Source: a virus (Duplodnaviria > Heunggongvirae > Uroviricota > Caudoviricetes). From it: DNA of 64,000 nucleotides. This document shows positions 11,305 to 60,132 of the stretch, one piece after another (within the stretch, counting starts at the first letter, position 1; the number at the start of each line of letters is the position of its first letter). The position numbers were made by a program, and so were the translations under genes. The stretch lies in the IMG/VR virus record IMGVR_UViG_3300009419_001390, one strand, 5' to 3'. The notes beneath the pieces are model-generated. The model did not search any database. It was given only the letters and a program-made list of their open reading frames with translations, and was not told the DNA's origin.

Positions 11305-12014
11305 TTGAACTATTATACACACTAGTAGTAACACATATTACTATTGCCTGCGTCACATTATACCTACATCGTAGTCAGGCACATCGTGCAGTGACATTCC
11401 ATCCTGTGGTAGCGCATTTTATGCGTTTTTGGCTATGGTTAACAACAGGTATGGTTACCAAACAATGGGTGGCCATACATCGCAAACATCACAGATACAG
11501 TGACGAGCCGGGTGATCCGCACAGTCCACATGTGTATGGAATCAAACAAGTTTTCTTTAAGGGGGCAGGATTATATCATGCGGCATCAAAAGATAAAGAT
11601 ATGGTTGATTCATATGGTGTTGGTACTCCTGCTGATTGGATGGAGCTTCACGTATACACTCCTCACTCCAGACTTGGCATTGGCATTCTCCTTTTGTTCA
11701 ACATCATTGTCTTTGGTTGGATTGGCGCCTTGATATGGGGCATACAGATGCTCTGGATTCCGTTCTGGGCCGCAGGAGTTATCAATGGTGTTGCACACTG
11801 GTGGGGGTATAGAAATGGCACAACGAGAGATCAATCTAGAAATATTAGTCCATGGGGTATTGTTGTTGGCGGTGAAGAGCTTCACAATAATCATCATCTG
11901 GACCCTGGTAGCGCAAAGCTATCGCTGAAACCTTGGGAGTTTGATATTGGTTGGATGTATATCAAACTTCTTGAAAAGGCTAAATTGGCAAAACTGCGTA
12001 TTGCTAATTCCTAA
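11301..12014 (+). CDS. membrane fatty-acid (delta-9-type) desaturase
   Basis: Three His boxes: HRSQAH, HRKHH, HNNHH; hydrophobic segments; WEFDIGW tail. Confidence 0.92.
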   Translation: MIELLYTLVVTHITIACVTLYLHRSQAHRAVTFHPVVAHFMRFWLWLTTGMVTKQWVAIHRKHHRYSDEPGDPHSPHVYGIKQVFFKGAGLYHAASKDKDMVDSYGVGTPADWMELHVYTPHSRLGIGILLLFNIIVFGWIGALIWGIQMLWIPFWAAGVINGVAHWWGYRNGTTRDQSRNISPWGIVVGGEELHNNHHLDPGSAKLSLKPWEFDIGWMYIKLLEKAKLAKLRIANS

Positions 12015-17104: not shown

Positions 17105-17454
17105 TCAAAGGTCTAATGGGCAGTCGCGGAGTAGTAGTGGATGGTGGTAACACCAGTGTTCCGTATGTTAACTCAAATGCCAGCAATCCCATACAGGGTA
17201 TGCTCCGTGTCAACGGAACAGACATGCAGGTGTTTGATGGTACAACATGGATCAACATGAGCACCAGTTATGCCACTGTTAGCCTGGATCCTATTACCCA
17301 AGAAGCCATTGATTGGGCACGGCGTAAGATGCAAGAAGAAAAAGACTTGCATGATCGCATGAAGCGGCACCCAGGACTAAAGAGTGCTTGGGAGCAGTTT
17401 CAGATCATGGATGCACTAACACTAGAAGAAAAGAAGCATGGACAAGAAGCCTGA
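17101..17454 (+). CDS. hypothetical protein
   Basis: 117-aa ORF coupled to both neighbours. Confidence 0.7.
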   Translation: MIKGLMGSRGVVVDGGNTSVPYVNSNASNPIQGMLRVNGTDMQVFDGTTWINMSTSYATVSLDPITQEAIDWARRKMQEEKDLHDRMKRHPGLKSAWEQFQIMDALTLEEKKHGQEA

Positions 17455-18808
17455 ACAAGATGATCTAACTAGCAAACAGCTAGACTATGCTGTGTTCTTG
17501 CCAGCTATCAGTGGCTTCTATGCTACCTTCATAGGCAAACAGCGTGTGAACAATGACTACATAGATCCTGCACGTATGCCAGCTGGAATGCCCGACATGG
17601 AACAGATGAACTGGCTTAACAGTCAGAAGGCATTGTTCCCATACAAGTGGAGCCTGTACTCGGGTGGTCATGCCAATCTAGATCTCAACAAAGATGATCC
17701 TAGTGAAGACATGGTTCGCAAGCGTGAGCCAGGTACGTTCATGCTAGGTGACTCTGGTGGATTCCAGATTGCCAAGGGCCTGTGGGAAGGCGACTGGAAG
17801 GCCAATTCAGGTTGTGCCAAAGCTGAAAAGAAACGCAGTTCTGTTCTAAAGTGGTTGGACGAGATTGCCGACTATGGAATGATCTTGGATATTCCAACTT
17901 GGGTTATTCACGACAGGAAAGCTAGCAAGGCTTGTCAGATTACCACACTGGATGAAGCAGTGGCCGCTACCAAATTCAATAACGAATACTTTATGAAACA
18001 TCGTAAAGGAAAAAAGAACGGCGGTGCAAAATTCTTAAATGTTCTACAAGGCGATAATCATACTTCAGCTGAAGAATGGTATCAGACCATGAAGGAATAT
18101 TGTGATCCTGTGAAATATCCTGACACTCACTTTGACGGTTGGTCAATGGGTGGTCAAAACATGTGTGACGTAGATCTAGTGCTACGCAGACTGGTAGCAT
18201 TACGCTACGATAACTTGTTACAAGAGGGAGTTCATGACTGGATGCACTTCTTGGGCACAAGTAAACTAGAGTGGGCAGTCTTGCTCACTGACATTCAACG
18301 TGCAGTTCGCAAATACGTTAACCCTGCATTTACTATCAGCTTTGACTGTGCTAGTCCTTTTCTAGCCACTGCTAATGGACAAATGTATCATCATATTGAT
18401 TTGCCACACAATGATAAATGGTGTTATCGAATGAGTCCAAGTGCAGACGACAAAAAATATGCCGTTGATACACGAATGTTCCGCGATGTAGTACTACAGG
18501 ATGGAATCTTTCCGCATTTTGACGAGAGCCCAATAAGCCAGCATTTACAGATCAAAGATGTATGTATATACAAGCCGGGCGATTTGAACAAGATCGGCAA
18601 AGAGGGCAAGACCAGCTGGGACAGCTTCAGCTATGCACTCATGATGGGACACAACGTGTGGACACACATCGAAGCAGTACAACGTGCCAATCGTGAATAC
18701 GATGCAGGCCGATGGCCTAACATGATGTGGAACGAAGGTACTAAAAAGCGCACAGGTGATCATGCCAAGTTCCGTGACATTGGACGCTATTTTTGCCGCG
18801 CCAACTAA
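17438..18808 (+). CDS. dpdA: TGT-fold 7-deazaguanine DNA transglycosylase (DpdA-like); appears frameshifted near 18782
   Basis: MLGDSGGFQI, MILDIP, FLNVLQG, GWSMGG, HFLG, SFDCASP motifs of the TGT family; located in the Que gene cluster. Confidence 0.8.
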   Translation: MDKKPEQDDLTSKQLDYAVFLPAISGFYATFIGKQRVNNDYIDPARMPAGMPDMEQMNWLNSQKALFPYKWSLYSGGHANLDLNKDDPSEDMVRKREPGTFMLGDSGGFQIAKGLWEGDWKANSGCAKAEKKRSSVLKWLDEIADYGMILDIPTWVIHDRKASKACQITTLDEAVAATKFNNEYFMKHRKGKKNGGAKFLNVLQGDNHTSAEEWYQTMKEYCDPVKYPDTHFDGWSMGGQNMCDVDLVLRRLVALRYDNLLQEGVHDWMHFLGTSKLEWAVLLTDIQRAVRKYVNPAFTISFDCASPFLATANGQMYHHIDLPHNDKWCYRMSPSADDKKYAVDTRMFRDVVLQDGIFPHFDESPISQHLQIKDVCIYKPGDLNKIGKEGKTSWDSFSYALMMGHNVWTHIEAVQRANREYDAGRWPNMMWNEGTKKRTGDHAKFRDIGRYFCRAN

Positions 18809-19034
18809 ACAAGCAAGTTTGGACATTATTGAATATTACAAACGCTATTGGATGGACATCATTGGCACACGTGGATTCAAAGGTGACAAGACTGTTAATC
18901 CACTTACGCAATTTAATGCGCTGTTTGAATATGTAGAAGAAGAAACCGAGGAGACCGAACAAGATGAGGAAATGGCAAAAGATTCAGCAGAGAGTAGACT
19001 TGGAGACATACTTAGACTTGACCACGGAGGGTGA
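18783..19034 (+). pseudogene. probable out-of-frame C-terminal segment of DpdA
   Basis: Overlapping +1 frame without an RBS; reads DAIFAAPTKQASLDIIEYYKRYW...QFNALFE, continuing naturally from ...FRDI. Confidence 0.6.
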
Positions 19035-19038
19035 ACAA

Positions 19039-19224
19039 ATGGGTGATTGGACAAATCGTGTTAAACATTTGGAAGAAGCACACAGAGTGCTTGATCTCAA
19101 ACTCAACGAAATGGAACGTCATCCTCATGTGGACGAATCAAAGGTTGCGGAACTCAAGCGTCAGAAGTTAAAATACAAAGACGAAATCCAAAAATTGCAA
19201 CAGCAACACAAAGGTGAAGTATGA
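19039..19224 (+). CDS. DUF465/YdcH-like small coiled-coil protein
   Basis: GGAGG RBS; LEEAHRVLD...LKRQKLKYKDEI. Confidence 0.75.
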   Translation: MGDWTNRVKHLEEAHRVLDLKLNEMERHPHVDESKVAELKRQKLKYKDEIQKLQQQHKGEV

Positions 19225-19535
19225 ATTGGTTTGATAAATGGATAGCTAAAAAAGTGCGCCGAGCATGGGAGAATTCCCAAGATGAAAAACAAAGTTATAC
19301 TCTAAACTCAATTGGAATTAAAACCGCTGAGTTAGTGTCAAGAGATCGCATGGACAGTAACCCAGACTTGAACTTTCGCATGTTCCGTGCAGAAAATGGA
19401 TATGTAATGGAAGTTCGATACAACGATCGTCGTACCGACCGCACAACCACTAACTTGCATCTTATTTCTGATGATCAAGATCTAGGGCAAAGCATTGCTC
19501 ATATCATAACCGTTGAATCACTAAAGGTATCATAA
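19221..19535 (+). CDS. hypothetical protein
   Basis: 104-aa ORF, coupled. Confidence 0.7.
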   Translation: MNWFDKWIAKKVRRAWENSQDEKQSYTLNSIGIKTAELVSRDRMDSNPDLNFRMFRAENGYVMEVRYNDRRTDRTTTNLHLISDDQDLGQSIAHIITVESLKVS

Positions 19536-20050
19536 TGGATCGTCCAGAGCACGATGGCGCTGACTTCTTTGTTGGAACAGAAGTAGAACACTCACCGGCA
19601 TTTGGCATGCGCACACTGTTTGTTATTGGTGTACAAGATCCTGCACGTATAGTGGGCCTGGCACAAAAAAACAACTGCGAACACATCTACTTTGGTGCCA
19701 ATCAAAGTTTTACCAATCCTGACACAAACAATGGTGATGAATGGCGACGTTGGGAAACCATGATCGGTAACTGTTTGATGCACGGAGTCTGGTGTACACT
19801 AGACGTCGACGTAACAGCCGCAGAAGGTTTGCTTGAAGGCACACTAATTGATCACTCTAGATTTATTCCAATGATCAGTGTAAAATTGCCCTATGCCAAA
19901 CTATACAATTACAACACTACTATCAAGATTGACGACAAAGATTTTGAAGCAACAAATCCAGGCGTATGGTGTCACAGTTTACATGACCTAAAAAATCGTG
20001 CTGTGTTTACAGACTGGTCTAAATATACTCAAGACGAGGTAATAAAATGA
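19535..20050 (+). CDS. conserved hypothetical protein in the Dpd cluster
   Basis: FFVGTEVEHSPAFG..TLFV, HIYFGANQSF, NPGVWCH; translationally coupled to the DpdL-like gene. Confidence 0.75.
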   Translation: MDRPEHDGADFFVGTEVEHSPAFGMRTLFVIGVQDPARIVGLAQKNNCEHIYFGANQSFTNPDTNNGDEWRRWETMIGNCLMHGVWCTLDVDVTAAEGLLEGTLIDHSRFIPMISVKLPYAKLYNYNTTIKIDDKDFEATNPGVWCHSLHDLKNRAVFTDWSKYTQDEVIK

Positions 20051-20490
20051 CATATGATGAAAGAAGACAAACTGAAATCAACAGCGAAGTAGCAGAACGC
20101 ATGATCTGGGTAAAGTTCCAGAAAGAAGGAATTCACAAATATCCCGCTGCCTTGGAGGATCCTAAACTTGCAGACGTATCTTTTCTTGGCTATCCTCATC
20201 GCCATATTTTCCATTTCCGGGTGTCAATCAGTGTCTTCCACAACGACAGGGACATCGAATTTATTCAATTCAAAAGGTGGCTTGAATCACTGTATTCGGG
20301 ACAACCAAATAGTTTGCAACTCGACTATAAGAGTTGCGAAATGATCGCAGATGACTTATATGTCCAAATCAACTCGCGTTATCCTGGCAGACATGTTATA
20401 CTCAGTGTGAGCGAGGACGACGAAAACGGATGTGAGATTGTATACCGCGATCCACGTCAACCCGAGAAAACCTTTTACCATCCCGTCTAA
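20047..20490 (+). CDS. QueD-like T-fold protein, DpdL-like (putative CDG decarboxylase)
   Basis: LGYPHRHIF fits LxxxHRHxF; EFI and SCEM motifs; lacks the QueD CxxxHG motif. Confidence 0.7.
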   Translation: MTYDERRQTEINSEVAERMIWVKFQKEGIHKYPAALEDPKLADVSFLGYPHRHIFHFRVSISVFHNDRDIEFIQFKRWLESLYSGQPNSLQLDYKSCEMIADDLYVQINSRYPGRHVILSVSEDDENGCEIVYRDPRQPEKTFYHPV

Positions 20491-20504
20491 TAGGAGAAAT
20501 CAAG

Positions 20505-20822
20505 ATGGCACAACCTAAATGGCTAGAGAAATATCTTCGCATGAAGCCAGAAGTAGAACAGATCTATGAGGATCTAGAAAAGTACAAAGAGTTCTGTGTA
20601 AGTCACGGCAGACTGTTTAATGAGGCTGCGCTGTACAACGAACGTGACCGTGACTTCATTGACTTCTTGAAGTTCCAAGAACGTGGTTACGCAAAGAACC
20701 AATGGAACTGGGCCAACAAGGATCCCAACGAAGTACGCAAGCCGTACACAGGTCCTCGTCGTGAAGGCGGACAAGGTGGTTATAAAGGCAACAACTTCCG
20801 GAGCAACTACCGCAATGCGTAA
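20505..20822 (+). CDS. hypothetical protein
   Basis: AGGAG RBS; Gly/Arg/Asn-rich tail. Confidence 0.7.
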   Translation: MAQPKWLEKYLRMKPEVEQIYEDLEKYKEFCVSHGRLFNEAALYNERDRDFIDFLKFQERGYAKNQWNWANKDPNEVRKPYTGPRREGGQGGYKGNNFRSNYRNA

Positions 20823-22005
20823 GCTATACTACATGGGCTTGGAGTCTTACAAGGCTCGATATACTCTGCAACTGACAGAGTGGAACAAGCGTGTGTTTGA
20901 TGCACGTGGACTAGATGTAGTCTACGTGCCAGGCTTGACCCTAGACAACAGTCAAAAGATTGTTGTGGGTCAAGTGTTAGATGCACACGGTCGCAGTTAC
21001 TTTGGCATGAGCCAGATGATGAATCTTGTGCGACTCATGCAACAAGGCGAAGTCACCAGTGAAGATGTGATCTACTTTGAAGACATGTTCCAGCCGGGCT
21101 TTGAAAGTCTTGGTTACATTATCAACCAAGTTCCGCAAGAAATGCGTCCACGTATTTTTGTACGCTGTTTGGCGCAGGCAATTGATCCAGATGACTTTGT
21201 TCATGTATGGGGTATGGGCAAGTGGATGATGGACTATGAACGCATGGTCAATGACATTGTGTCTATCTCTGGTGGTGCTGTGTTGGCTACCAATGAAGAG
21301 ATGGTCATGCACATGAAGGTAGCGGGCTGGACTGCTCCCGTCTACAATATTTCAGGCTTGGCATTTGGCAAGAGCGAAGTACGTGAACGTGTGCCAGGTG
21401 AGCTCAAGCCATTTGACAAACGAGCATTCCGTGTGGGCTTTGCCGCACGTTGGGATCAAGAGAAGCAACCAGACTTCTATATGGATCTAATTGAGCTGTG
21501 GGCAGAACGTCATCCAGGTGAGCGCCTGGAGTTTGCGTTGTTTTCTGGTGCCAAACTAAAAAGCAACAACGACAGCTACATGGCTCGTACCAGAGATCTG
21601 CAGGCACGTGGATTGCTTACAATCTACGAGGACCTAGAGAAAAATGATTACTATACTTTGCTTGCTGATACAAGGGTTTTGTTTAATTGTGCATTACAAG
21701 ACTGGGTATCTAACACAGTTTCAGAAGCGGATACTTTGGGTACTAATGTTCTTTACCCTGCTTATAGAAGTTTTCCCGAGACTTTTGCTAACGACCTAGA
21801 ACGTCTTTACATACCCTGGAGTCTGGAAGATGCTATTGGCAAGTTGGAAAAGTTAATTCGTAAGCCGCATGCTAATCAAGGCAAGATTTCAGACTGGACC
21901 AATGGCACAGTTGATCGTATTGTGGACATCCTTGAAGGCAAGGGCGAGCAATGGTTGCGTATGAGCACAGACTACCGCAAGCACACACATGAGTCAAAAT
22001 TTTGA
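20815..22005 (+). CDS. GT-B fold (GT4-like) glycosyltransferase
   Basis: FAARWDQEKQP acceptor/donor motif, FNCALQDWVSNTVSEA (ExxxxxxxE-equivalent position), YRSFPE. Confidence 0.75.
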   Translation: MRKLYYMGLESYKARYTLQLTEWNKRVFDARGLDVVYVPGLTLDNSQKIVVGQVLDAHGRSYFGMSQMMNLVRLMQQGEVTSEDVIYFEDMFQPGFESLGYIINQVPQEMRPRIFVRCLAQAIDPDDFVHVWGMGKWMMDYERMVNDIVSISGGAVLATNEEMVMHMKVAGWTAPVYNISGLAFGKSEVRERVPGELKPFDKRAFRVGFAARWDQEKQPDFYMDLIELWAERHPGERLEFALFSGAKLKSNNDSYMARTRDLQARGLLTIYEDLEKNDYYTLLADTRVLFNCALQDWVSNTVSEADTLGTNVLYPAYRSFPETFANDLERLYIPWSLEDAIGKLEKLIRKPHANQGKISDWTNGTVDRIVDILEGKGEQWLRMSTDYRKHTHESKF

Positions 22006-22213
22006 TTTTGAACTTTGGTACCAAATGCTCACGGAAGAACTTTGGTGGAAAGAAGTTGGTCCAGAATACGCCACCGACGTTTATCAAAACACAGTAAATG
22101 CCTGGGGACATGGTATGAACTACTATGCTCAGGATGGCGTTGGTGGTGCAGTAGACTTGACAAAACTCTACGAACAATGTAAACTAGTATCAATACTCAA
22201 GAAGGAGATTTAA
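21989..22213 (+). CDS. hypothetical protein
   Basis: 74-aa coupled ORF. Confidence 0.55.
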   Translation: MSQNFDFELWYQMLTEELWWKEVGPEYATDVYQNTVNAWGHGMNYYAQDGVGGAVDLTKLYEQCKLVSILKKEI

Positions 22214-22214
22214 T

Positions 22215-22910
22215 ATGTTTGGAGCAAATTATACAGACGGTGGCATAATGAACTATCGTTCTGCAAGCGAAATCAACTCAGCAATGGGTCGTGTATACGG
22301 ACACATGAGTCTGGCTGTGCTTGTGTCAATGTTTGTGAGTTATTTTGTAGGCACCAGTCCAGAGTTGCTACAATTCTTTTTTACAGGTGTGCTAAAGTGG
22401 ATTGTGATCTTTGCACCGCTGGCGGCAATCTTTGGCGTGAGCTATGTTCTGGGTAACAACCCCAGTAAAGGTGTGGCACAACTATGCTTGCATGGCTTTG
22501 CGGCACTTATGGGATTGAGCTTTAGCATGATCTTTGCTGTGTTCAACATGGGGTCAATTGTTAGTGCGTTCATGGGTGCGGCAATCTTGTTTGGGGTGAT
22601 GAGTGGCTATGGCTACTTTACTAAAAAGGATCTAAGCTCAATGGGCCAGATGATGTTTGTGGGCTTGATTGCTATTGTGATTGCCAGCATTGTAAACATC
22701 TTTATTGGTAGTACCGTAATGCAGATGGTTATCAGTGCATTGGCCATTATCATCTTCCTGGGACTAACAGCATACGACACACAACGTATTCGTGAAGAAG
22801 TCAGTGTTGACACCAGTCCAGCCGTGGAAGTAACAGGCGCATTGTCTTTGTACATGAACTTTATCAATTTGTTCCTAAACTTGTTACAGTTGTTTGGCGA
22901 AAGAAAATAA
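22215..22910 (+). CDS. Bax inhibitor-1/YccA family membrane protein
   Basis: Seven hydrophobic helices; YGYFTKKDLS, TAYDTQRI, ALSLYMNFINLF. Confidence 0.92.
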   Translation: MFGANYTDGGIMNYRSASEINSAMGRVYGHMSLAVLVSMFVSYFVGTSPELLQFFFTGVLKWIVIFAPLAAIFGVSYVLGNNPSKGVAQLCLHGFAALMGLSFSMIFAVFNMGSIVSAFMGAAILFGVMSGYGYFTKKDLSSMGQMMFVGLIAIVIASIVNIFIGSTVMQMVISALAIIIFLGLTAYDTQRIREEVSVDTSPAVEVTGALSLYMNFINLFLNLLQLFGERK

Positions 22911-22912
22911 TC

Positions 22913-23887
22913 ATGGCAACAAAGAAACAAACCGAAGCAGAAAAACTTGCAGAACAAGAGCGTCTGATTCAAGTGCTCAAGTTTACACCACGCACCTACA
23001 GCATCTGCATGTGGGGCTACGGTGGCGAGAAAGTCATGGGTACTGTGGATCGCAAGATTTACGATTACTTCAAGCAACGTAGACTAGATGTAAGTGACTT
23101 TGCTTGGGATAGTGACTATGCAGAAGACAACAACATTCCAGAAGACATGTGGCCATTTTCTCCAGGCTCATGGTACGATTGCGACAACATGGGCCATGTG
23201 CATGGTGTTAGCCGCAATGCTGGCACACTGCAAATCTTGGACGAAAACGGTAACGCTGTATTTGAAAAGAGTTTTGATGCCATTGATGGCGGTGGTGAAG
23301 ATGGTCCAGACTGGTCATGTGGTGACGAAGTTTGGATTGGTTCTCAAGCTGACGGTACAGTAGTGTTTCTTGGCAGTAGTAATGAAAAAGGCACATTCTT
23401 TGAAGGAGAGATTGAACTCAAAGAACCTTTTGATATTACCAAACTGTGCTTGGGTTACGACGAAGTTGATGGCGAAGAAATTATCAATACTGTAACCTAC
23501 GACGACGAAGACATTGACAACAACGGTGGCAACACAGATGGTAAGAGTTCAGACTTTGGCATGTACATTGCTGGTTCACAAAAACACAATGATGGCAAGT
23601 GGGAAAAGTACACCAACATGGATGACATTGTGTACACTATGACTGAGTGGTTTCCAAAGAAAGTTCAGCCTGTGCGTGAAGGTGTTTACAATATCAAGAC
23701 TGCTGGTAAGAACAGCTACACACATCAGGCCAAATGGACTGGCTCACGTTGGATTAGTTCTTGGCAAGAAGACGGCAGTGGCACTGAAGAACTCAAAATC
23801 AAAGAGTGGCAGGGTATTGCTTACAATCCTGACGAGCAAGACCTGCGTGACGAACTAGATAAAATTATTCTAGATTCGGAGTGCTAA
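22913..23887 (+). CDS. acidic hypothetical protein
   Basis: 324-aa ORF; C-terminal EWFP..VQPVREGVY module. Confidence 0.75.
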   Translation: MATKKQTEAEKLAEQERLIQVLKFTPRTYSICMWGYGGEKVMGTVDRKIYDYFKQRRLDVSDFAWDSDYAEDNNIPEDMWPFSPGSWYDCDNMGHVHGVSRNAGTLQILDENGNAVFEKSFDAIDGGGEDGPDWSCGDEVWIGSQADGTVVFLGSSNEKGTFFEGEIELKEPFDITKLCLGYDEVDGEEIINTVTYDDEDIDNNGGNTDGKSSDFGMYIAGSQKHNDGKWEKYTNMDDIVYTMTEWFPKKVQPVREGVYNIKTAGKNSYTHQAKWTGSRWISSWQEDGSGTEELKIKEWQGIAYNPDEQDLRDELDKIILDSEC

Positions 23888-24858
23888 TGACAAAAATATT
23901 TGTAACAGGTGCAACAGGCTACATTGGTAGCCATGTGTGCAAACAACTCAAGCAGGACGGCTATGAAGTAGTTGGCCTTGACCGTGTGCATCGTGAACAT
24001 ACTATAAAGCACATGGATCGCTTTATTGAAGCTGACTATCATAGTCCTGTGTGTTTTGATGCACTGGCCTACGAACAACCAGATGCTATCATTCATCTAG
24101 CAGGTACCAGCCTTGTTGGTCCTAGCATGAGTGATCCTGCTGAATACTATACCAACAACGTGGCCAAGACTGCGGCATTGTTGGATGTGGCACGTTGGTT
24201 GGAAAAGATGCCAGTGATTGTGTTTTCTAGTTCAGCCGCTGTGTATGGCAATCCGGATGCCAAGGTCATATACGAGCACACACCATACAGTCCACTGAGC
24301 CCGTATGGTACTAGCAAGGCCATGATTGAAATCATGCTTACTGATTACAATCGTGCATATGGAATGAAAAGTGCAAGTCTACGCTATTTCAATGCCTGCG
24401 GCGCAGATCTTGACAGTGAACTAGGCCAAGAACCTGGTGCCACACACATTATTGCACGACTATTGGAAAGTGTACGTGATAACACAGAATTCACACTGTA
24501 CGGTGATGGCACTCATGTGCGTGACTACGTACACGTGACTGACCTAGCCGCCGCACATGTTATGGCTGTGCAGTATCTCATGAGCGACATGCAGGAATGT
24601 ATGGCATTGAATCTTGGCACAGGTACTGGTGCCAGCAATCAAGAGATCATTGATTTGGTTGCGCAGTTGGTTGGTACCGTGCAACTGACCAAGGCGCCAG
24701 CAAGACCAGGTGATCCAGCACAACTGGTAGCAGGCAATCTAATGGCAAAGACCACGCTGGGCTGGAGTCCTGCACATTCAGACCTCAAGACCATTATTGA
24801 ATCAGCTTGGAAGTGGTATAATAACCTACCACATGTCATTGACAAATCATCTAAATAA
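23887..24858 (+). CDS. galE: UDP-glucose 4-epimerase (extended SDR)
   Basis: GATGYIGSH, HLAG.SLVG.S..DP..YY.NN, SSSAAVYG, YGTSK, LRYFNACGA, RDYVHVTDLA.AH. Confidence 0.9.
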   Translation: MTKIFVTGATGYIGSHVCKQLKQDGYEVVGLDRVHREHTIKHMDRFIEADYHSPVCFDALAYEQPDAIIHLAGTSLVGPSMSDPAEYYTNNVAKTAALLDVARWLEKMPVIVFSSSAAVYGNPDAKVIYEHTPYSPLSPYGTSKAMIEIMLTDYNRAYGMKSASLRYFNACGADLDSELGQEPGATHIIARLLESVRDNTEFTLYGDGTHVRDYVHVTDLAAAHVMAVQYLMSDMQECMALNLGTGTGASNQEIIDLVAQLVGTVQLTKAPARPGDPAQLVAGNLMAKTTLGWSPAHSDLKTIIESAWKWYNNLPHVIDKSSK

Positions 24859-24867
24859 TCTTACAAT
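24839..24867 (+). promoter_or_regulatory. sigma70-type promoter with nested late core
   Basis: TTGACA-17-TACAAT; spacer contains CTAAATA. Confidence 0.7.
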
Positions 24868-24907
24868 ACAAACAAAGTCATCCACGACTATTAACTCGGA
24901 GAACAAA

Positions 24908-25678
24908 TTGACATACAACAAAGTATACATTAGCAACGATCCAGACGAAACAGCACTGGATGCCATGGCAGGCGATGGCGGCTACGAACTAGGTACAGCA
25001 CACAAACAGATCGCATTCAAAATGAACAGAGACAAAAAACGTTTCTGGGCAGGCGACAACATCAGTGACTATGTTGATGACAAAGCCAAAGAGCAATTGA
25101 TTGACGAAGCCACAGCGGCATTTGAACTTGTGTTAGACACGCTACTAATTGATCGACAAACCGATCCCAACAGCCAAGGCACAGCCCGACGCCTGGCCAA
25201 GATGTACTTCAATGAAATAATGGCAGGTAGATATGACACAGCACCAGACGCAACAGCATTTCCTAATGATTCAACAGACCGTTACGAAGGCATGTTGGTT
25301 GTACGCAGTGAATTGCGCAGTATGTGTAGTCATCATCATCAACCAGTTACTGGGGTCGCCTATATTGGAATCATCGCTGCCGAAAAGCTCATTGGTTTAT
25401 CTAAGTATACTCGCATTGCTCAGTGGTGTGCTAGGCGTGGTACTTTACAAGAAGAACTGGCCAATGACATCGCACGAGAAATACAAAAAGCCACAGGAGC
25501 CACAGACCTAGGTGTGTATATTCAAGCCACGCACGGATGCTGTGAGAATCGCGGCATCATGGCACACTCTAGTTTAACACAGACTACTGTGCTTAAAGGT
25601 GCATTCAAGGACGATGGTAATACAAAGAAGGAATTCTTTGACAACATTAAACTACAACAGGAGTTTGCACCAAGATGA
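24908..25678 (+). CDS. folE: GTP cyclohydrolase I
   Basis: SMCSHHHQP, GLSKY.RI, LQEEL, HGCCENRG; TTG start after GGAG. Confidence 0.95.
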   Translation: MTYNKVYISNDPDETALDAMAGDGGYELGTAHKQIAFKMNRDKKRFWAGDNISDYVDDKAKEQLIDEATAAFELVLDTLLIDRQTDPNSQGTARRLAKMYFNEIMAGRYDTAPDATAFPNDSTDRYEGMLVVRSELRSMCSHHHQPVTGVAYIGIIAAEKLIGLSKYTRIAQWCARRGTLQEELANDIAREIQKATGATDLGVYIQATHGCCENRGIMAHSSLTQTTVLKGAFKDDGNTKKEFFDNIKLQQEFAPR

Positions 25679-25905
25679 AAAATGCCGCGGAATTTGCACA
25701 AAACTTAATCGAGAGGGCTCGTAAGATGCAGAAGTTCCGCATCATTAAACCTCAGCCTGAGAGTTTTATCTTTGGTGGAAAAGTGCCATTTGACATTGCA
25801 ATCAAAGACGGAATGATGACATTTACCGTACACGCAGTAGACCTTGCAGAAGCAAATGCAATGGTTGACAAATATCTAGACGACAATTCAGCATCGGAGT
25901 GGTAA
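25675..25905 (+). CDS. hypothetical protein
   Basis: 76-aa coupled ORF. Confidence 0.65.
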   Translation: MKNAAEFAQNLIERARKMQKFRIIKPQPESFIFGGKVPFDIAIKDGMMTFTVHAVDLAEANAMVDKYLDDNSASEW

Positions 25906-25906
25906 C

Positions 25907-26440
25907 ATGAGCCATAGAGAAAAAGATTCGGCAGACTTTGATCTAGAAGCATTCATTGACTTGTTTGATGAAGCACTTACTAGTGATGATCCTAGTGTGC
26001 AAAAGACACTACAGCATCTAATGGTTATTTGTGCGTTGGCTCGTAACCATGCACAACACGATCGACGTAATGGCCCAATGCGCCGTATGTTTGAAGACCA
26101 ACATACAATACTTCGGAGGTTGGAAAGACTTGAGTCGGACCAACAGAACAAGAGGGTCTACCCTGGCGGAGGACTTGGAGGTGGCGGCATGCCGTTTGGC
26201 CCTTATGTACACCCCACCATTGTGCCTAACACAGGTGGAGGCACTGGTTGGCCGCCACAACCTGGAACTTATCCTCCGGGAACCATCTGGGCACAAGGCG
26301 GAACCTCAGACGTAGGATTTGGTGCAGTTCCTCCTGTTACATCAACGGCAACATCAACGGTTGCAGAACGTGTGGAAGATCTGTTAAAATCCAGCTACAA
26401 AGGTTCGTCTGTAGGAACAAAAAATGTTAAAATTACTTGA
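25907..26440 (+). CDS. hypothetical protein with Pro/Gly-rich tail
   Basis: 177-aa ORF. Confidence 0.65.
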   Translation: MSHREKDSADFDLEAFIDLFDEALTSDDPSVQKTLQHLMVICALARNHAQHDRRNGPMRRMFEDQHTILRRLERLESDQQNKRVYPGGGLGGGGMPFGPYVHPTIVPNTGGGTGWPPQPGTYPPGTIWAQGGTSDVGFGAVPPVTSTATSTVAERVEDLLKSSYKGSSVGTKNVKIT

Positions 26441-26894
26441 ACGTCTAGGGCGTAAACGTATCATATATGATCGTATCAACAACGAGCCATACTTGGAACG
26501 CTATTACCTGTTTCTCAAAGAGCGTGAACGTTTTCCGTTCAATGTATTTTTACACAAGTTCTTAAAAGGCGACCCAGATGATGTTCATGATCATCCTTGG
26601 CCGTATGCAACACTGATCTTGAAAGGTGGTTATTATGAATGGATTCCGGAGTTTAACTCAACTGGTATTAAAATTGGAGAAGCTCGTCACTGGCGTGGGC
26701 CCGGACACTTTCGCACTTGCAGTGCTAGCAGTTATCATCGCATCGAACTGGATCCTGGCGTAACTGCCTGGACATTGTTTATGCCTGGACCGCATACTCG
26801 TGAATGGGGATTCTTAACAGGCAAAGATCCAAAAACAAATTGGGAACACAATGAAGATTATCTCACCCGGCGTAGTAGCACTTCGTCCGTTTAA
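26424..26894 (+). CDS. cupin-fold protein
   Basis: LHKF...D.DDVHDHPW, GGYYE, YHRIEL, WTLF..GP..REWGF. Confidence 0.75.
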   Translation: MLKLLERLGRKRIIYDRINNEPYLERYYLFLKERERFPFNVFLHKFLKGDPDDVHDHPWPYATLILKGGYYEWIPEFNSTGIKIGEARHWRGPGHFRTCSASSYHRIELDPGVTAWTLFMPGPHTREWGFLTGKDPKTNWEHNEDYLTRRSSTSSV

Positions 26895-27186
26895 GATTCA
26901 TACCAATGCTCTTTCTCAAGAGATGGTAGACTTCTGGGTCATGATGGGTGCTGAAGCACAGGAAATTAGCGATGAATTCCACACGCACAGAGGCCGGCAT
27001 AGAACTGACAAGCACTATCGCATACGCATGGGCAAGGGTGACTGGAGCCACCAATTCAACGATGGTAGTGGCACCTACATCATTCACTTGCGCGAAGAAT
27101 TTGCACCAGAAGCCAGCCTTTTTATTATGAAGTATATAGACAACATTATCAACCACGACTGTAAGGTACCGGAGCCTCAACTATGA
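26851..27186 (+). CDS. hypothetical protein (start uncertain)
   Basis: Fills the gap on the coding strand; stop overlaps the next ATG. Confidence 0.5.
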   Translation: MKIISPGVVALRPFKIHTNALSQEMVDFWVMMGAEAQEISDEFHTHRGRHRTDKHYRIRMGKGDWSHQFNDGSGTYIIHLREEFAPEASLFIMKYIDNIINHDCKVPEPQL

Positions 27187-27743
27187 AACTGATTCACAAC
27201 AACAAACATCTAAACACCTGGGTGCATAAGATCATTCGAGACATGGCGCAGGATAACTGGCGCCCAGACTACATTGCAGGTATCACACGTGGCGGACTTG
27301 TGCCTGCCACTATGCTGAGTCATTATCTTGATGTGCCCATGCATACCTTGAACATCAGCTTTCGCGACAACGACCTTGGTCCTGAAAGCAATTTGTGGAT
27401 GGCCGAAGATGCGTTTGGTTATGTGCCATATGAAGGTACTGAGTTGCCAGCGCCTGCAGATCGAGTCACAACCGATCCTGCCCTGCGCAAGAAGATTCTT
27501 GTTGTTGACGATATCAATGACTCGGGTCGCACATTGAACTACATCAAACAAGACTGGCCAAGTGGTTGCTTGCCCAAAGATCCAGCCTGGGCAGATATCT
27601 GGCATGATAGTGTGCGCTTTGCTGTGATGGTAGACAATCTATCCAGCGGTTTCCAAGATGTGGACTACTGCGGCACAGAAATTAACAAACAGGAAACACC
27701 ATGTTGGATTGTGTTTCCTTGGGAAAATTGGTGGGAGAACTAA
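27183..27743 (+). CDS. type I phosphoribosyltransferase (Gpt/Hpt-like)
   Basis: GITRGGLVPA, PRPP loop ILVVDDINDSGRT, WIVFPWE. Confidence 0.9.
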   Translation: MKLIHNNKHLNTWVHKIIRDMAQDNWRPDYIAGITRGGLVPATMLSHYLDVPMHTLNISFRDNDLGPESNLWMAEDAFGYVPYEGTELPAPADRVTTDPALRKKILVVDDINDSGRTLNYIKQDWPSGCLPKDPAWADIWHDSVRFAVMVDNLSSGFQDVDYCGTEINKQETPCWIVFPWENWWEN

Positions 27744-27746
27744 AAG

Positions 27747-28235
27747 ATGTTAAACAGTAAGAAAGTTGGCTTCACAGCCTCAACATTTGATTTGCTACAT
27801 GCAGGGCACATTGCCATGCTCAAAGAAGCAAAAGAGCACTGCGAATATTTGATTGCAGGGTTACAAAACGATCCCACATTGGATCGTTCAACAAAAAACA
27901 AACCTATTCAAAGTATTGTAGAACGACAACTACAACTAGAAGGTTGCAAGTTTGTGGATGAAGTTTGGGTCTACAACACAGAAAAAGATCTTGAAGACTT
28001 GTTGCTCACATTACCAATTGATGTACGTATCTTGGGTGTGGAATACGAAGGCAAAGAGTTTACAGGTCGTGAAATTTGTCACAAGCGAGGCATTGAATTG
28101 TATTTCAATGGTCGTGATCACAGTTTCAGTTCTAGCGAACTTCGTCAACGTGTGCATGCCGCAGAAAAGTTCAAAAAGGAACTAGGGCCTGACCCAGTGG
28201 GCGCAGATGATACAGGTGGCCCTAGCCCACGATAA
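27747..28235 (+). CDS. TagD-like cytidylyltransferase
   Basis: TFDLLHAGH (HIGH-type), ERQLQLEGCKFVDEV, RDHSFSSSELR. Confidence 0.88.
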   Translation: MLNSKKVGFTASTFDLLHAGHIAMLKEAKEHCEYLIAGLQNDPTLDRSTKNKPIQSIVERQLQLEGCKFVDEVWVYNTEKDLEDLLLTLPIDVRILGVEYEGKEFTGREICHKRGIELYFNGRDHSFSSSELRQRVHAAEKFKKELGPDPVGADDTGGPSPR

Positions 28236-28238
28236 ATA
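28232..28238 (+). promoter_or_regulatory. late promoter core (ATAAATA)
   Basis: Overlaps the upstream stop and directly precedes the structured queD leader. Confidence 0.55.
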
Positions 28239-28244
28239 CTTGTT

Positions 28245-28316
28245 CCAAGCGGCCTTGGCTTCACCCCGCTATATCAAACTCTGCCAGCCTATGCTACACA
28301 ACATAGGAGAAACAGC
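28245..28316 (+). ncRNA. candidate preQ1-I-like riboswitch (cis-regulatory leader of queD)
   Basis: P1 AGCGG/CCGCT, loop TTGGC complementary to GCCAG, A-rich linker, CCTATG/CATAGG stem occluding SD AGGAG, competing CCAAG/CTTGG hairpin. Confidence 0.55.
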
Positions 28317-28823
28317 ATGTCAGCACTACAACCAGTGGTATACAAATACCAAAGCACCAAAGAGTATCATGACGCATTCCCATGCGCTTATCGTCAATGG
28401 AGGAGTGACAGTCATTGTAATCTAATACATGGCTACTCATTCTCAATGAAGTTCTATTTTGGAACCAATGACCTAGACGTTCGTAACTGGGCCGCAGACT
28501 ATGGCGGACTCAAAGAACTCAAGAAGATCCTGGAAGATCAATTTGATCACACCTTGATCGTAGCACAAGATGATCCAGAAATGGCCACATTCAAACTGCT
28601 ACAAGAAAAGAACATGGCCAAGATTGTGGTGTTACCACGACTAGGATGTGAAGGACTAAGTGACATGCTGTACAAGTATGTGAATGGTGTTTACATTCCG
28701 GACATGTGGGGTCCAAGCGAAGCCGCCCGTTTGTGGTGCTATCGTGTGGAAGTGCGTGAAACCCAAAGCAATATGGCTTTCCGCGAAGGTCATCGCGAAT
28801 GGAATGAAAACTTGCTTGACTAA
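28317..28823 (+). CDS. queD: 6-carboxy-5,6,7,8-tetrahydropterin synthase (QueD), copy 1
   Basis: SHCNLIHGY, DYGGLK, FDHTLIV, LGCEG, RETQSN. Confidence 0.9.
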   Translation: MSALQPVVYKYQSTKEYHDAFPCAYRQWRSDSHCNLIHGYSFSMKFYFGTNDLDVRNWAADYGGLKELKKILEDQFDHTLIVAQDDPEMATFKLLQEKNMAKIVVLPRLGCEGLSDMLYKYVNGVYIPDMWGPSEAARLWCYRVEVRETQSNMAFREGHREWNENLLD

Positions 28824-28844
28824 TACCTAGTTTAATGTTATACT
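28816..28844 (+). promoter_or_regulatory. sigma70-type promoter
   Basis: TTGACT-17-TATACT with TG extension. Confidence 0.7.
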
Positions 28845-28875
28845 ACATTACTTTCAACTACTCTTGGAGTTTTCA

Positions 28876-29421
28876 ATGTCACGTAGATTTAGCACAAAAA
28901 CTTATGGCAACGATCGAGGCCTAAGCTGTACCTTCCGTCAACATGCCGCAACGCATAGTCATTGCAGTCTGTTACATGGATACAGTTTAGGTTTCAAATT
29001 TGTATTCGAAGCAGAACAACTTGATGAACGTAATTGGGTACAAGACTTTGGCGGCCTAGACGAAGTCAAAGAGTTCCTTGAAAAAACATTTGACCATACC
29101 ATGATTGTTGCAGAAGATGACCCACTGCTCAAGCATTTTCAGAAGATGGCTGGGTGGAGTGCAATCAAAGACATGCACGGAAAAGCAGATGAAGTACAGG
29201 TACATCCTGTAGGCAACAAAGGTGTGGCAAAATTGGTAATGATGCCTGCTGTGGGTTGTGAAGCATTTGCTGAGTATGTGTATGCCTGGACTGCTGACTG
29301 GTTGCGCAATGATCCCACAAACAAGTATCAAAATTTACTGGGTGACGAGCATCCACGTGTTAAATTAATCTCTGTTGAAGTATTTGAACACGCAGGCAAT
29401 TCTGCAATCTACGAAGGGTAA
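28876..29421 (+). CDS. queD: QueD, copy 2
   Basis: SHCSLLHGY, DFGGL, FDHTMIV, VGCEA, FEHAGNSA. Confidence 0.9.
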   Translation: MSRRFSTKTYGNDRGLSCTFRQHAATHSHCSLLHGYSLGFKFVFEAEQLDERNWVQDFGGLDEVKEFLEKTFDHTMIVAEDDPLLKHFQKMAGWSAIKDMHGKADEVQVHPVGNKGVAKLVMMPAVGCEAFAEYVYAWTADWLRNDPTNKYQNLLGDEHPRVKLISVEVFEHAGNSAIYEG

Positions 29422-29422
29422 T

Positions 29423-29845
29423 ATGAGACAAGAAATCTTTGAAGATCTTCCAGAAACGATTGAAGAAAGTGAAGCACCTTGGACTGACAGCGTAAGGCAG
29501 GATTTCCATGTGGCAGTGTATCGCGACAGATATCCTGTCACAGACGGCCATCTGTTGTTTGTACCCAAGTACAATGCTGTGGGTGTGCTCAAGGATGCAT
29601 TTGAAGATGCATTCAATTACGGAAAAGAAAAGGTTGATGATGGCGAATGGGACGGTTTCAACATTGGACTTAATTACGGCCAGGCTGCTGGACAAACTGT
29701 GTCTTGGCCTCATATACATCTTATTCCCCGTAAAACGGGCGACGTCGCGGATCCTGTGGGCGGTGTACGACACACGATTCCGGGCAAGGGTAATTATAGA
29801 ACGGCGCCAGAGGGAACGTGGCCACATTTAGATGAGGGAAGATGA
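29423..29845 (+). CDS. HIT family hydrolase
   Basis: YPVTDGHLLFVPK, GFNIGLN.G.AAGQTV, HIHLIPR. Confidence 0.92.
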   Translation: MRQEIFEDLPETIEESEAPWTDSVRQDFHVAVYRDRYPVTDGHLLFVPKYNAVGVLKDAFEDAFNYGKEKVDDGEWDGFNIGLNYGQAAGQTVSWPHIHLIPRKTGDVADPVGGVRHTIPGKGNYRTAPEGTWPHLDEGR

Positions 29846-30708
29846 TAATAGTAACCGGTGACCGTGGCTTTATAGGAAGCGAATTAAAACAACATCTTGT
29901 GGAGCACGGCCACAAGGTACACAGTCTAGATTGGGCTGATAGAGGTCGGACCTGGACTGCTGAAGAACCCATTGAATGGATTTTTCACATGGGTGCCATC
30001 AGCGAAACCAATGTAACTGACTGGTCAGCTTTGGTCAAGAAGAATATTGAAGACACCCAAGCCTGGATCCGGTTTGCACAAGAACACAACTGTGGTATTA
30101 CCTACGCATCAAGTGCCAGTGTGTACGGGCCGTGGTCGGGTAGCCCAGAGTGGGGTCCATTCCAGCCACAGCACTACTACGGTGTGAGCAAGATTGCTAT
30201 TGACATGTGGTGTGCAGAACAAAAATTTACTGTGCCTGTACAAGGTGTGCGTTTCTTTAATGTATATGGACGCAACGAAGGTCACAAGAACCAGCCAAGT
30301 CCAGTCCGCAGATATATTGAGAATGCAATAACCACACGTAAACTTACAGTGTGGCACCACAACAATCGTCTGGGCTCACGAGATTTTATCAGCGTGGATG
30401 ACTGCATCAAGGGCATGCTGGCGCTGAAAGATGCAAGAGTGAGTGGCGTTTACAACCTAGGCACAGGCCAACAGCTGACATTTGAAGACATTGCCAAGCT
30501 GATTCAAAAGCATATGGGCATGGACAATGCTCAAGTATGCATTGCTCCCATGCCTGATCATATGATTGAAAAATATCAGTGGGAGAGTCTAGCGGACCTA
30601 AATAAGCTAAAGTCAGTTGTTCCAAATTGGAATCCACAAACGGTGGATGAATGGCTAGACGACAATTTTGAAACACTGTATAATAAAATCAAAGAGGAAA
30701 TACTATGA
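29842..30708 (+). CDS. ADP-L-glycero-D-manno-heptose 6-epimerase-like SDR
   Basis: TGDRGFIG, FHMGAIS.T, YASSASVYG, YGVSK, RFFNVYG..E.HK, RDFISVDD, YQ....ADL. Confidence 0.8.
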   Translation: MIIVTGDRGFIGSELKQHLVEHGHKVHSLDWADRGRTWTAEEPIEWIFHMGAISETNVTDWSALVKKNIEDTQAWIRFAQEHNCGITYASSASVYGPWSGSPEWGPFQPQHYYGVSKIAIDMWCAEQKFTVPVQGVRFFNVYGRNEGHKNQPSPVRRYIENAITTRKLTVWHHNNRLGSRDFISVDDCIKGMLALKDARVSGVYNLGTGQQLTFEDIAKLIQKHMGMDNAQVCIAPMPDHMIEKYQWESLADLNKLKSVVPNWNPQTVDEWLDDNFETLYNKIKEEIL

Positions 30709-31598
30709 AATTGAAAGTAAGCGAAATGTTCTACAGCCTGCAAGGCGAAGGCAGATACATAGGTGTGCCTAGCGTGTTCTTGCGTACATTTGGTTGTAAT
30801 TTTACCTGTGGTGGATTTGGCATGCCCAAGGGTGAAGTTAGTACAGAACGCGATGCCGTTGATGCAAGCAAATATTCTAAATTTGAACAATTACCATTGG
30901 TACATACTGGCTGTGACAGCTATGCCTCATGGGATCCCAAGTTCAAAGATCTTAGTCCCACAAAAGACATTGACACTATTGTAGACGAATTACTGGCTCT
31001 TACCCCTAATGGCAAATGGCAACAATACATTGGCAACCCTGTGCATCTGGTGATCACAGGCGGTGAGCCATTGTTGGGTTGGCAACGTGTGTATTCTGAA
31101 CTGTTAAGTCATCCAAGAATGATAGATCTTGATTATATTACATTTGAAACCAATGGCACTCAGATGTTGGATGAAAAGTTCAAAGACTATATTCAAGAAT
31201 GGCATACCGAATGGCGTGGCACCACCGAAGCCGACCATCAAGAGTACATTGGTCGTTTCCGTGAAATGCAATTTAGCATTAGTCCTAAACTGAGCAAGAG
31301 TGGCGAGAAGTGGGCTGATGCTATCTGTCCTGAAGTAATTGCTGATTATCAACATGTTGGTGTTACATATCTAAAATTTGTTGTTTCAGATTTTGAAGAC
31401 CTGATGGAAGTAAAAAGTGCGGTAGACGAATACCGTGCCGCAGGGTTTATGGGCCATGTGTATGTGATGCCAGTTGGTGGCACAACAGAACTGTATGATG
31501 TTAACAAAAAGCGCATTGCTGACGAAGCATTGAAACTTGGATATTACTACAGCCCGCGACTGCATGTGGACCTTTGGGGAAATGGCTGGGGCAAGTAA
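30705..31598 (+). CDS. queE: 7-carboxy-7-deazaguanine synthase (radical SAM)
   Basis: EMFYSLQGEG..G.PSVFLR..GCN..C, GCDS, ITGGEPL, ETNGT, SISPK, PRLHVDLW. Confidence 0.92.
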   Translation: MKLKVSEMFYSLQGEGRYIGVPSVFLRTFGCNFTCGGFGMPKGEVSTERDAVDASKYSKFEQLPLVHTGCDSYASWDPKFKDLSPTKDIDTIVDELLALTPNGKWQQYIGNPVHLVITGGEPLLGWQRVYSELLSHPRMIDLDYITFETNGTQMLDEKFKDYIQEWHTEWRGTTEADHQEYIGRFREMQFSISPKLSKSGEKWADAICPEVIADYQHVGVTYLKFVVSDFEDLMEVKSAVDEYRAAGFMGHVYVMPVGGTTELYDVNKKRIADEALKLGYYYSPRLHVDLWGNGWGK

Positions 31599-60060: not shown

Positions 60061-60086
60061 TCGGGCTCCTTGTATGTATGCAAATA

Positions 60087-60115
60087 ATTATACGACAGGG
60101 TGGATTTAGTGTCAA
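60087..60115 (-). promoter_or_regulatory. consensus sigma70 promoter within an 8-bp inverted repeat
   Basis: TTGACA-17-TATAAT; CAGGGTGG (60096-60103) and CCACCCTG (60118-60125) flank the -35. Confidence 0.85.
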
Positions 60116-60132
60116 ACCCACCCTGGGCCACT

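Follow-up and report, generated by a model that had tools for sequence, protein, structure and literature searches.

How can a phage place a 7-deazaguanine base in its DNA without QueC, and which base does it finally make? These questions are raised by a stretch of 64,000 nucleotides (hereafter the window) from the IMG/VR record IMGVR_UViG_3300009419_001390, a virus of the class Caudoviricetes. An initial annotation, made from the letters alone, had placed a DpdA-like protein of the tRNA-guanine transglycosylase (TGT) type, FolE, two QueD proteins, QueE and a further protein with the motif LGYPHRHIF within 14 kb, and all of these are present as called, on the + strand within positions 17438-31598 (Table 1). 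With a probability of roughly 75% we regard this module as a QueC-independent, DpdL-type system for 7-deazaguanine modification of DNA. What was observed here are the folds, the family matches, the catalytic residues, the synteny and the lack of QueC and QueF, and the reading draws on all of them. Systems of this kind are already known, the DpdL-type deazaguanine route without QueC having been published in 2023 (PMC10516641). New with respect to the literature are three points: the base-swapping enzyme belongs to a family without a Pfam match, this family is abundant, and a glycosyltransferase, GalE and a phosphoribosyltransferase are conserved partners in the module.

Table 1. Genes of the module, with their positions in the window
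Feature	Positions	Strand	Evidence and remarks
DpdA-like DNA-guanine transglycosylase candidate	17438-19034	+	TGT fold; adjoins DNA polymerase (PolB)
171-aa protein, without a function by match	19535-20050	+	homologue of ACP17 ASD50402, which adjoins ACP17 dpdA
DpdL homologue	20047-20490	+	147 aa, LGYPHRHIF; QueD paralogue without the catalytic Cys; proposed 7-carboxy-7-deazaguanine (CDG) decarboxylase
GT-B (GT4-like) glycosyltransferase	20815-22005	+	between or beside dpdA and dpdL; AlphaFold2 model confidence (pLDDT) 71
GalE (UDP-glucose 4-epimerase)	23881-24858	+	TIGR01179, 299 bits against a cut-off of 262
FolE (GTP cyclohydrolase I)	24797-25678	+	PF01227, E 1.8e-38, 132 bits against a cut-off of 27
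Gpt-like 6-oxopurine phosphoribosyltransferase (PRTase)	27183-27743	+	PF00156, E 2.6e-15
RfaE-domain-II-like adenylyl/cytidylyltransferase (sugar-phosphate nucleotidyltransferase type)	27747-28235	+	PF01467, E 4.7e-12
QueD-type 6-carboxytetrahydropterin (CPH4) synthase, copy 1	28317-28823	+	PF01242, 53.8 bits against a cut-off of 22.4; HCxxxHGY
QueD-type protein, copy 2	28864-29421	+	PF01242, 54.6 bits against a cut-off of 22.4
HIT-family nucleotide hydrolase or transferase	29375-29845	+	PF01230, E 2.4e-7; HinT-/ATP-adenylyltransferase-like
HldD-like short-chain dehydrogenase/reductase (SDR; ADP-heptose 6-epimerase type)	29842-30708	+	PF01370, E 4.4e-28
QueE (CDG synthase) variant	30705-31598	+	QueE N-terminal signature; CX3CX34C

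DpdL and its companions in a proposed pathway lacking QueC

Cui et al. 2023 (PMC10516641) introduced DpdL as a paralogue of QueD that carries LxxxHRHxF in place of the motif CxxxHGH; the initial annotation had named the same LxxxHRHxF motif. The protein was found in phages that have DpdA, FolE, QueD and QueE, without QueC, and was proposed to decarboxylate CDG (PMC10516641). In the window the LGYPHRHIF stretch (position 20197, residues 47-55) carries the LxxxHRHxF signature in place of the CxxxHGH of QueD. The complete protein is 57% identical to DpdL of Acidovorax phage ACP17 (ASD50405) and 35% to the original DpdL, gp040 of Cellulophaga phage phiST (CGPG_00067), and it matches phrog_17812 at E 1.4e-36. 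A hidden Markov model (HMM) of the DpdL family finds all eight phage lineages compared at 1e-36 or better, and residues H30, H51, H53, H65, E71, E98 and E123 are invariant across them. DpdL co-occurs with FolE, QueD, QueE and DpdA, and QueC is lacking. The T-fold is seen weakly in our own comparisons (hhalign against the phage QueD profile, 61% over 43 columns; PH0634 in the PDB, E 0.72; an atlas cluster with PTPS on 10% of its members), and for this fold we rely on the HHpred probability of 99.89% given for phiST DpdL by Cui et al. 2023 (PMC10516641). As a separate observation, the DpdL domain of Vibrio phage Bakedbeans (locus L104, 9212-10363) forms the C-terminal part of a 383-aa open reading frame (ORF), gp176, and looks fused.

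The enzymes upstream in the pathway are assigned with varying ease. FolE scores 135 bits with its NCBIfam models, under their (equivalog) cut-offs; since the PF01227 domain spans residues 94-285, the true start of the gene probably lies downstream of 24797. QueD copy 1 is 51% identical to QueD of ACP17 and about 78% to the copy found in the relatives, whereas copy 2 (42% identical to copy 1) is closest to QueD of Synechococcus phage BUCT-ZZ01; most relatives have a single QueD against two in the window. The QueD proteins of DpdL phages, phiST included, read HCxxxHGY for CxxxHGH, so that the first zinc His is absent (Tyr or Phe). By analogy with phiST, which makes 2'-deoxy-7-deazaguanine (dDG) with the same variant, this form is presumably active.

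In QueE the matches to five NCBIfam QueE models and to the solved QueE structures 6nhl and 4njg (PDB) cover residues 2-36, whereas the scores of the whole protein stay under the NCBIfam cut-offs. Over its full length (307 aa) it is 33% identical to the annotated QueE of Pseudomonas phage PA5oct, and it is 42% identical to that of BUCT-ZZ01; residues C31, C35 and C70, the GGEP segment and ETN are invariant. An insert of about 34 residues separates the second and third radical-SAM Cys (30795-30914, residues 31-70). This CX3CX34C form is common to the window, its syntenic relative (IMG/VR contig G001, see below), PA5oct, BUCT-ZZ01 and Xanthomonas phage X1, whereas ACP17 and phiST keep the canonical CX3CX2C.

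QueC, QueF and ArcS had not been recognised in the window, and family scans agree: none of the three families matches any of the 68 scanned ORFs, a set that includes every ORF of at least 130 aa and leaves out most of the shorter ones outside the module. The initial annotation had allowed for a QueC gene beyond the window. To assess this, IMG/VR contigs and complete phage genomes were taken as stand-ins for the remainder of the genome. Contig G001 (317,493 bp, 89% complete by CheckV estimate) is syntenic with the window at 60-75% protein identity and encodes the DpdA-like protein, the 171-aa protein, DpdL, glycosyltransferase, GalE, FolE, HIT protein, QueD, PRTase and QueE. G001 lacks both QueC and QueF, as do the complete PA5oct and BUCT-ZZ01 genomes, and QueC is equally absent from the complete genomes of phiST, ACP17, RHph_I1_18 and Bakedbeans. 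A QueC gene outside the window is therefore unlikely, since it is missing from a syntenic relative that is 89% complete as well as from complete phage genomes. Weak matches to the QueC model in another relative, G003 (14 bits), and in Xanthomonas phage X1 (16 bits) fall below the cut-off and were discounted.

The module is well conserved. Forty IMG/VR relatives extend 5 kb or more past the DpdA gene; the 171-aa gene, DpdL and the glycosyltransferase follow it in every one of them, GalE in 39 and FolE in 36. As the gene set thus recurs in 36-40 of 40 relatives, its clustering is not due to chance. The HIT gene stands by QueD, within 10 kb downstream of the DpdA gene, in 19 of the 27 relatives that have enough flank, and beside QueD in G001.

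The window itself, with a GC content of about 44% and a switch of its genes from the + to the - strand at about 50.9 kb, looks like part of a jumbo phage. Megablast of the 14-kb module against 50,697 phage records gave no match. The DpdA-like protein falls into at least 8000 clusters at 90% identity, and near-identical DNA is present in runs of 13 studies, labelled as subsurface, freshwater, lake and aquatic metagenomes. The phage clade with the module is very common in freshwater, and the phage is an abundant uncultured freshwater jumbo phage whose replication-gene block is arranged like that of PA5oct.

A DpdA-like protein with the TGT fold

The enzyme expected to exchange the base is unusually divergent and belongs to a large family without a Pfam match. 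A search of 1.84 billion cluster representatives yielded 945 homologues at E <=0.001, of which 51 diverse ones were aligned and used for an AlphaFold2 model (pLDDT 93.6). The model is a TGT-type (beta/alpha)8 barrel. Its top 50 Foldseek matches are all Z. mobilis TGT (E about 5e-8), and VIA-align, run without Foldseek, places ArcTGT (Z 19.4), QTRT2 (18.6) and bacterial TGT (18.4) first, followed by the DNA preQ0 insertase DpdA (7ui4, Z 16.8) and Cap10 (14.5), with other TIM barrels at 11.6 or less. Among the 51 homologues D105 (in DSGG), H270 and D303 (in FDxAS, which reads FDCAS in the window) are invariant, and Q110 and D151 are 98% conserved. A profile-profile comparison by hhalign with E. 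coli Tgt gives a probability of 93%; in this alignment D105 (DSGGFQ) corresponds to D89, D151 to D143 and D303 (FDCAS) to the nucleophile D264. The same method relates the family to ASD50403 of ACP17 (96.6%, E 6e-10). HMMER searches of the PDB, with the single sequence as well as with the family profile, found no TGT, and kinship with TGT is accordingly shown by fold and by profile-profile comparison only. The fold and the aligned residues thus point to membership of the TGT/DpdA superfamily. That the protein exchanges guanine for 7-deazaguanine in DNA is suggested by its context, namely the neighbouring PolB gene, the linkage to the pathway and the G-modified DNA of PA5oct.

The 171-aa gene downstream accompanies the DpdA gene in 40 of 40 relatives. 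Its product has no match in Pfam, in PHROG, in a PDB profile search or in the atlas.

In the record as it stands the dpdA-like gene is interrupted. Two nucleotides are missing behind position 18780 (18780/18781), which leaves an ORF of 456 aa (17438-18808), whereas more than 100 close homologues measure 512-581 aa; the conserved C-terminal tail is found in the +1 frame (18783-19034). We compared Logan contigs of four runs from four studies over the region 18300-19300. Behind 18780 each of them has two additional letters, TG in three runs and CG in the fourth, and two of the contigs are otherwise identical to the window. Because independent contigs carry the missing letters, the real gene encodes 532 aa and ends at 19034, and the population does not carry it as a pseudogene. 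The two letters are missing from this record only, and their loss, which falls in a TGTG context, is most probably due to faulty assembly.

Proposed route, related systems and rival readings

In the route that we favour, FolE would convert GTP to dihydroneopterin triphosphate, the phage-type QueD (HCxxxHGY) would make CPH4 and QueE would make CDG. DpdL would then remove the carboxyl group of CDG to give 7-deazaguanine, which the TGT-fold enzyme would swap for guanine in phage DNA after replication, and the swapped base would shield this DNA from restriction enzymes that read G. The simplest role of the Gpt-like PRTase would be to return the released guanine to GMP and GTP, feeding the FolE step, while the GT4-like enzyme together with GalE may perform a further step on some acceptor. 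Every substrate in this scheme, DNA as the target and the final base are inferred.

The closest chemical precedent is found in Cellulophaga phages. The phages phiST, phi13:1 and phi19:2 (FolE, QueD, QueE, DpdL and DpdA3, no QueC) carry dDG, and in phiST guanine is fully replaced (PMC10516641). Full replacement by 7-deazaguanine has also been described for Vibrio phage VP1 in a 2025 preprint. Like the window, phiST encodes FolE, an HCxxxHGY QueD, QueE, an LxxxHRHxF DpdL, a very divergent TGT-like enzyme and a Gpt-like PRTase, and lacks QueC and QueF. The two differ in that the phiST transglycosylase belongs to a different clade (259 aa against 532 aa in the window), and in that the GT4-like enzyme, GalE, the 171-aa partner, the HIT protein and the heptose-type enzymes are all lacking in phiST, whereas phiST has MazG-type and kinase-like genes which the window does not have.

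The gene order is shared by the Pseudomonas jumbo phage PA5oct (Wroclawvirus; EST35_0316 to EST35_0322), whose DpdA-like protein is of the same clade (35% identity over 91% of the length). Its genes follow the order of the window, with PolB, a structural protein, the DpdA-like protein, a 353-aa glycosyltransferase-like protein, DpdL, PRTase, QueE and RNase H, and again QueC and QueF are missing. The PA5oct module is compact, whereas BI-1, GalE, FolE, two QueD, HIT and SDR genes are inserted in the window; moreover DpdL of PA5oct reads HFH where the window has HRH. The DNA of PA5oct resists G-specific restriction enzymes (PMC12191111); for the chemical identity of its modified base we found no report in the literature.

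In ACP17, BUCT-ZZ01 and Xanthomonas phage X1 the genes for DpdL, the glycosyltransferase-like protein and QueE adjoin a TGT-like gene, as they do in the window. BUCT-ZZ01 also shares the PRTase and ACP17 the 171-aa homologue, whereas ACP17 and X1 are without PRTase. The TGT-like proteins of these three phages (about 416-437 aa) form another clade, related to that of the window at the profile level only. Bacterial DpdA (7ui4), Tgt and ArcTGT have in common with the window protein the TIM-barrel TGT fold (Z 16.8-19.4), DSGG and the nucleophile aspartates. They differ from it in sequence family (no match), in having the zinc site and in lacking its extra N-terminal segment and C-terminal helical tail; they use preQ0 or preQ1, whereas 7-deazaguanine is the presumed base of the window enzyme.

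Several points weigh against the favoured reading. Regarding the enzyme, the window protein has no match in Pfam, PF01702 (the Pfam TGT family) included, nor any NCBIfam, PHROG or PDB sequence match, and its homologue in PA5oct is likewise without a family match. The zinc site CxCxxC...H is not conserved in the family, with only C376 (67%) and H405 (88%) partly kept. The hhalign relation to DpdA3 of phiST (CGPG_00065) is weak (83%, E 8.7e-6, over 83 columns) and none is detectable to DpdA1 of phage 9g (0.7%); BLASTP searches against phiST DpdA3 and ACP17 ASD50404 gave no match, and identities to TGT and the named DpdA subfamilies amount to 10-16%, too low for a reliable tree. Given the lack of the zinc site and of PF01702, the weak relation to DpdA3 and the lack of one to 9g DpdA1, the protein appears to belong to none of the named DpdA subfamilies. 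Its frame, as said, is broken in this record. Regarding the chemistry, the base in this phage, or in any phage of this DpdA clade, rests on inference. The decarboxylase activity of DpdL has been proposed and never demonstrated, and dpdL together with dpdA of phiST or ACP17 gave no dDG in E. coli (PMC10516641). Finally, the published scheme has no place for the glycosyltransferase, GalE, the PRTase or the HIT protein.

The glycosyltransferase, GalE and the PRTase, which the initial annotation had missed along with the 171-aa, HIT, RfaE-II-like and HldD-like genes, may change the product. The final base may be more than plain 7-deazaguanine, because the glycosyltransferase and GalE as well as the Gpt-like PRTase are conserved in the module and recur in unrelated DpdL phages; and since a conserved glycosyltransferase with GalE does not fit plain dDG, we keep open a further-modified and possibly sugar-bearing base. 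The glycosyltransferase has no Pfam match. The 50 best structural matches of its model all fall among the GT-B enzymes (Z 13.7-19.6), for the most part GT4-type ones (MshA, BshA, PimA, sucrose-phosphate synthase). Its homologues are ASD50404 of ACP17 (E 7e-12), EST35_0317 of PA5oct and UTS52032 of BUCT-ZZ01 (61% identity); those of ACP17 and PA5oct match Glycos_transf_1 below the cut-off (E 2.5e-4 and 1.1e-3, respectively).

The same pathway could thus lead to another base, with the GT4-like enzyme and GalE, perhaps aided by the heptose-type enzymes, decorating a 7-substituted deazaguanine (in DNA or as the free base) with a sugar. We regard this as possible, though less likely than not. Several observations speak for it. 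When lineages are compared, the glycosyltransferase proves better conserved than any other protein of the module: its identity to the BUCT-ZZ01 protein is 61%, that of DpdL 36% and that of QueE 42%. By its family HMM and by synteny the glycosyltransferase stands directly beside dpdA/dpdL in the window, G001, PA5oct, ACP17, BUCT-ZZ01 and Xanthomonas phage X1, and it is followed by GalE in 39 of 40 relatives; its residues R207, K212 and E299, of the donor-site type, are invariant. The failure of ACP17 dpdA and dpdL to yield dDG in E. coli (PMC10516641) is in line with a missing step, and PA5oct is targeted by END nucleases, which sense hypermodified DNA. Nonetheless, 7-deazaguanine has no obvious acceptor for a sugar, and no reductase or hydroxylase that would create one was identified. 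The family HMM has no match in the whole genomes of phiST, RHph_I1_18 and Bakedbeans, which have DpdL without this glycosyltransferase, and phiST makes plain dDG. Moreover, the enzyme could act on another target, e.g. a protein or a glycan, and our literature search found no report of a sugar-bearing deazaguanine in DNA.

The more specific claim, that in the freshwater jumbo clade together with PA5oct, ACP17, BUCT-ZZ01 and X1 a GalE-fed GT4-like enzyme adds a sugar to a 7-deazaguanine derivative, is somewhat more doubtful still. If true, it would be the first sugar-bearing purine in DNA, and it would explain why dpdA and dpdL alone failed in E. coli. To our knowledge no DpdL or DpdA3-type enzyme has been reconstituted so far, and the route to complete guanine replacement is unsettled. 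The GT4-like enzyme, GalE and the PRTase are concrete candidates for the 'missing enzymes', and they are found in several unrelated cultured phages. The module yields a simple prediction on DNA chemistry, and it bears on the restriction, END-nuclease and glycosylase defences that these phages evade or trigger.

As to the remaining sugar-type genes, the RfaE-II-like protein scores 72.9 bits with TIGR02199 and the HldD-like SDR 183 bits with TIGR02197, both below the cut-offs; the former gene is also present in G001. Together with the 171-aa and HIT genes they are interleaved with the pathway genes. BUCT-ZZ01 (locus L101, 13504-14847) encodes a second protein that is GT4-like by its motifs (UTS52035, 447 aa), between FolE and the TGT-like gene.

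The PRTase raises a different possibility, in which the base enters through the nucleotide pool: the enzyme would join 7-deazaguanine or CDG to phosphoribosyl pyrophosphate (PRPP), the product would become dDGTP and be incorporated by PolB, and the TGT-like enzyme would proofread or act otherwise. We consider this improbable. The PRTase assignment as such is sound, with PDB profile matches to the P. horikoshii purine PRT (1vdm, 6.5e-20), Sulfolobus GpT-2 (1e-14) and E. coli XGPRT (3e-11) and an invariant PRPP motif VDDxxDxG in the family. In tubercidin biosynthesis a PRTase uses CDG. Homologues lie inside the modules of PA5oct and BUCT-ZZ01 and are encoded by phiST, where guanine is fully replaced, and by the dDG-carrying phi13:1 and phi19:2; 17 of the 21 phage records that hold a PRTase homologue also hold DpdL. 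In addition, between its FolE and DpdA3 genes phiST encodes a MazG-type NTP pyrophosphohydrolase and a kinase-like protein of the AAA_18 family. On the other hand, ACP17, Xanthomonas phage X1, RHph_I1_18 and Bakedbeans have DpdL and no homologue of this PRTase, DpdA is encoded by every phage known to carry a 7-deazaguanine, and the window shows no dedicated kinase or dGTPase. Salvage of the released guanine is a simpler account of the enzyme.

It might also be argued that the TGT-like enzyme acts on tRNA or another RNA, with the pathway supplying a queuosine- or archaeosine-like precursor. The nearest folds are indeed those of tRNA enzymes (ArcTGT, QTRT2 and TGT at Z 18.4-19.4, against 16.8 for DpdA), and the hhalign probability of 93% was obtained with E. 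coli Tgt. The differences in Z are small, however, and the protein has neither a PF01702 match nor the zinc site; no tRNA gene is seen in the window, the TGT-like gene lies beside that of a DNA polymerase, PA5oct DNA is G-modified and DpdL phages carry dDG in their DNA. An RNA target therefore seems very improbable. The missing tRNA-TGT family match and zinc site, the PolB neighbour and the restriction resistance of the phage with the PA5oct homologue all support what had been suggested at the outset, that this phage carries a deazaguanine in its DNA.

Least credible of all is a pterin glycoside made by FolE, one PTPS-type protein, the SDR and the GT-B enzyme: the window does have two PTPS paralogues, the GT-B matches do include a Synechococcus PCC 7942 enzyme, UDP-glucose:tetrahydrobiopterin glucosyltransferase (5zer, Z 16.8), and BUCT-ZZ01 infects that host, but 5zer ranks below the top matches, level with dozens of GT4 enzymes, only one QueD is present in most relatives, and in Pseudomonas, Acidovorax and Xanthomonas phages the glycosyltransferase always stands beside dpdA/dpdL and not beside PTPS.

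Other genes in and around the module

Within the module some further genes were observed. The glycosyltransferase and GalE are separated by the genes of a Bax-inhibitor-1 membrane protein (22215-22910, + strand; PF01027, E 1.3e-54) and of an unknown protein of 324 aa; this inserted pair is found at this site in 2-3 of 40 relatives only, and elsewhere in G001. Between FolE and the PRTase a 156-aa protein (26424-26894, + strand) matches phrog_4786, 'cysteine dioxygenase', at E 2.8e-35 and has no Pfam match.

Upstream of the module, on the + strand, the window encodes a ClpB/Hsp104-type AAA_2 ATPase with a D2-small domain (53-1123), a ferritin-like protein (9927-10364) and a fatty-acid desaturase (11259-12014), which are unusual for a phage, as well as a 1250-aa protein (3604-7356) whose first 110 residues match the cytidylyltransferase-like family PF01467.

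Downstream, five tandem radical-SAM paralogues of 401-453 aa (41986-48433, + strand) each carry CxxxCxxC, one of them with a SPASM domain, and share 20-31% identity with one another. Three further unknown genes lie at the two ends (41070-41993 and 48426-50886); the whole array is kept in G001. On the - strand a GFO/IDH/MocA oxidoreductase, a DegT/DnrJ aminotransferase (E 3e-108) and an NDP-sugar epimerase/dehydratase (50855-53756) form a second sugar-nucleotide set whose family matches suggest amino-sugar synthesis. These are followed, on the same strand, by thymidylate synthase (E 1e-106) beside dihydrofolate reductase (53991-55402) and by a DUF2201 metallopeptidase/VWA protein beside a MoxR-like AAA ATPase (58768-61251).

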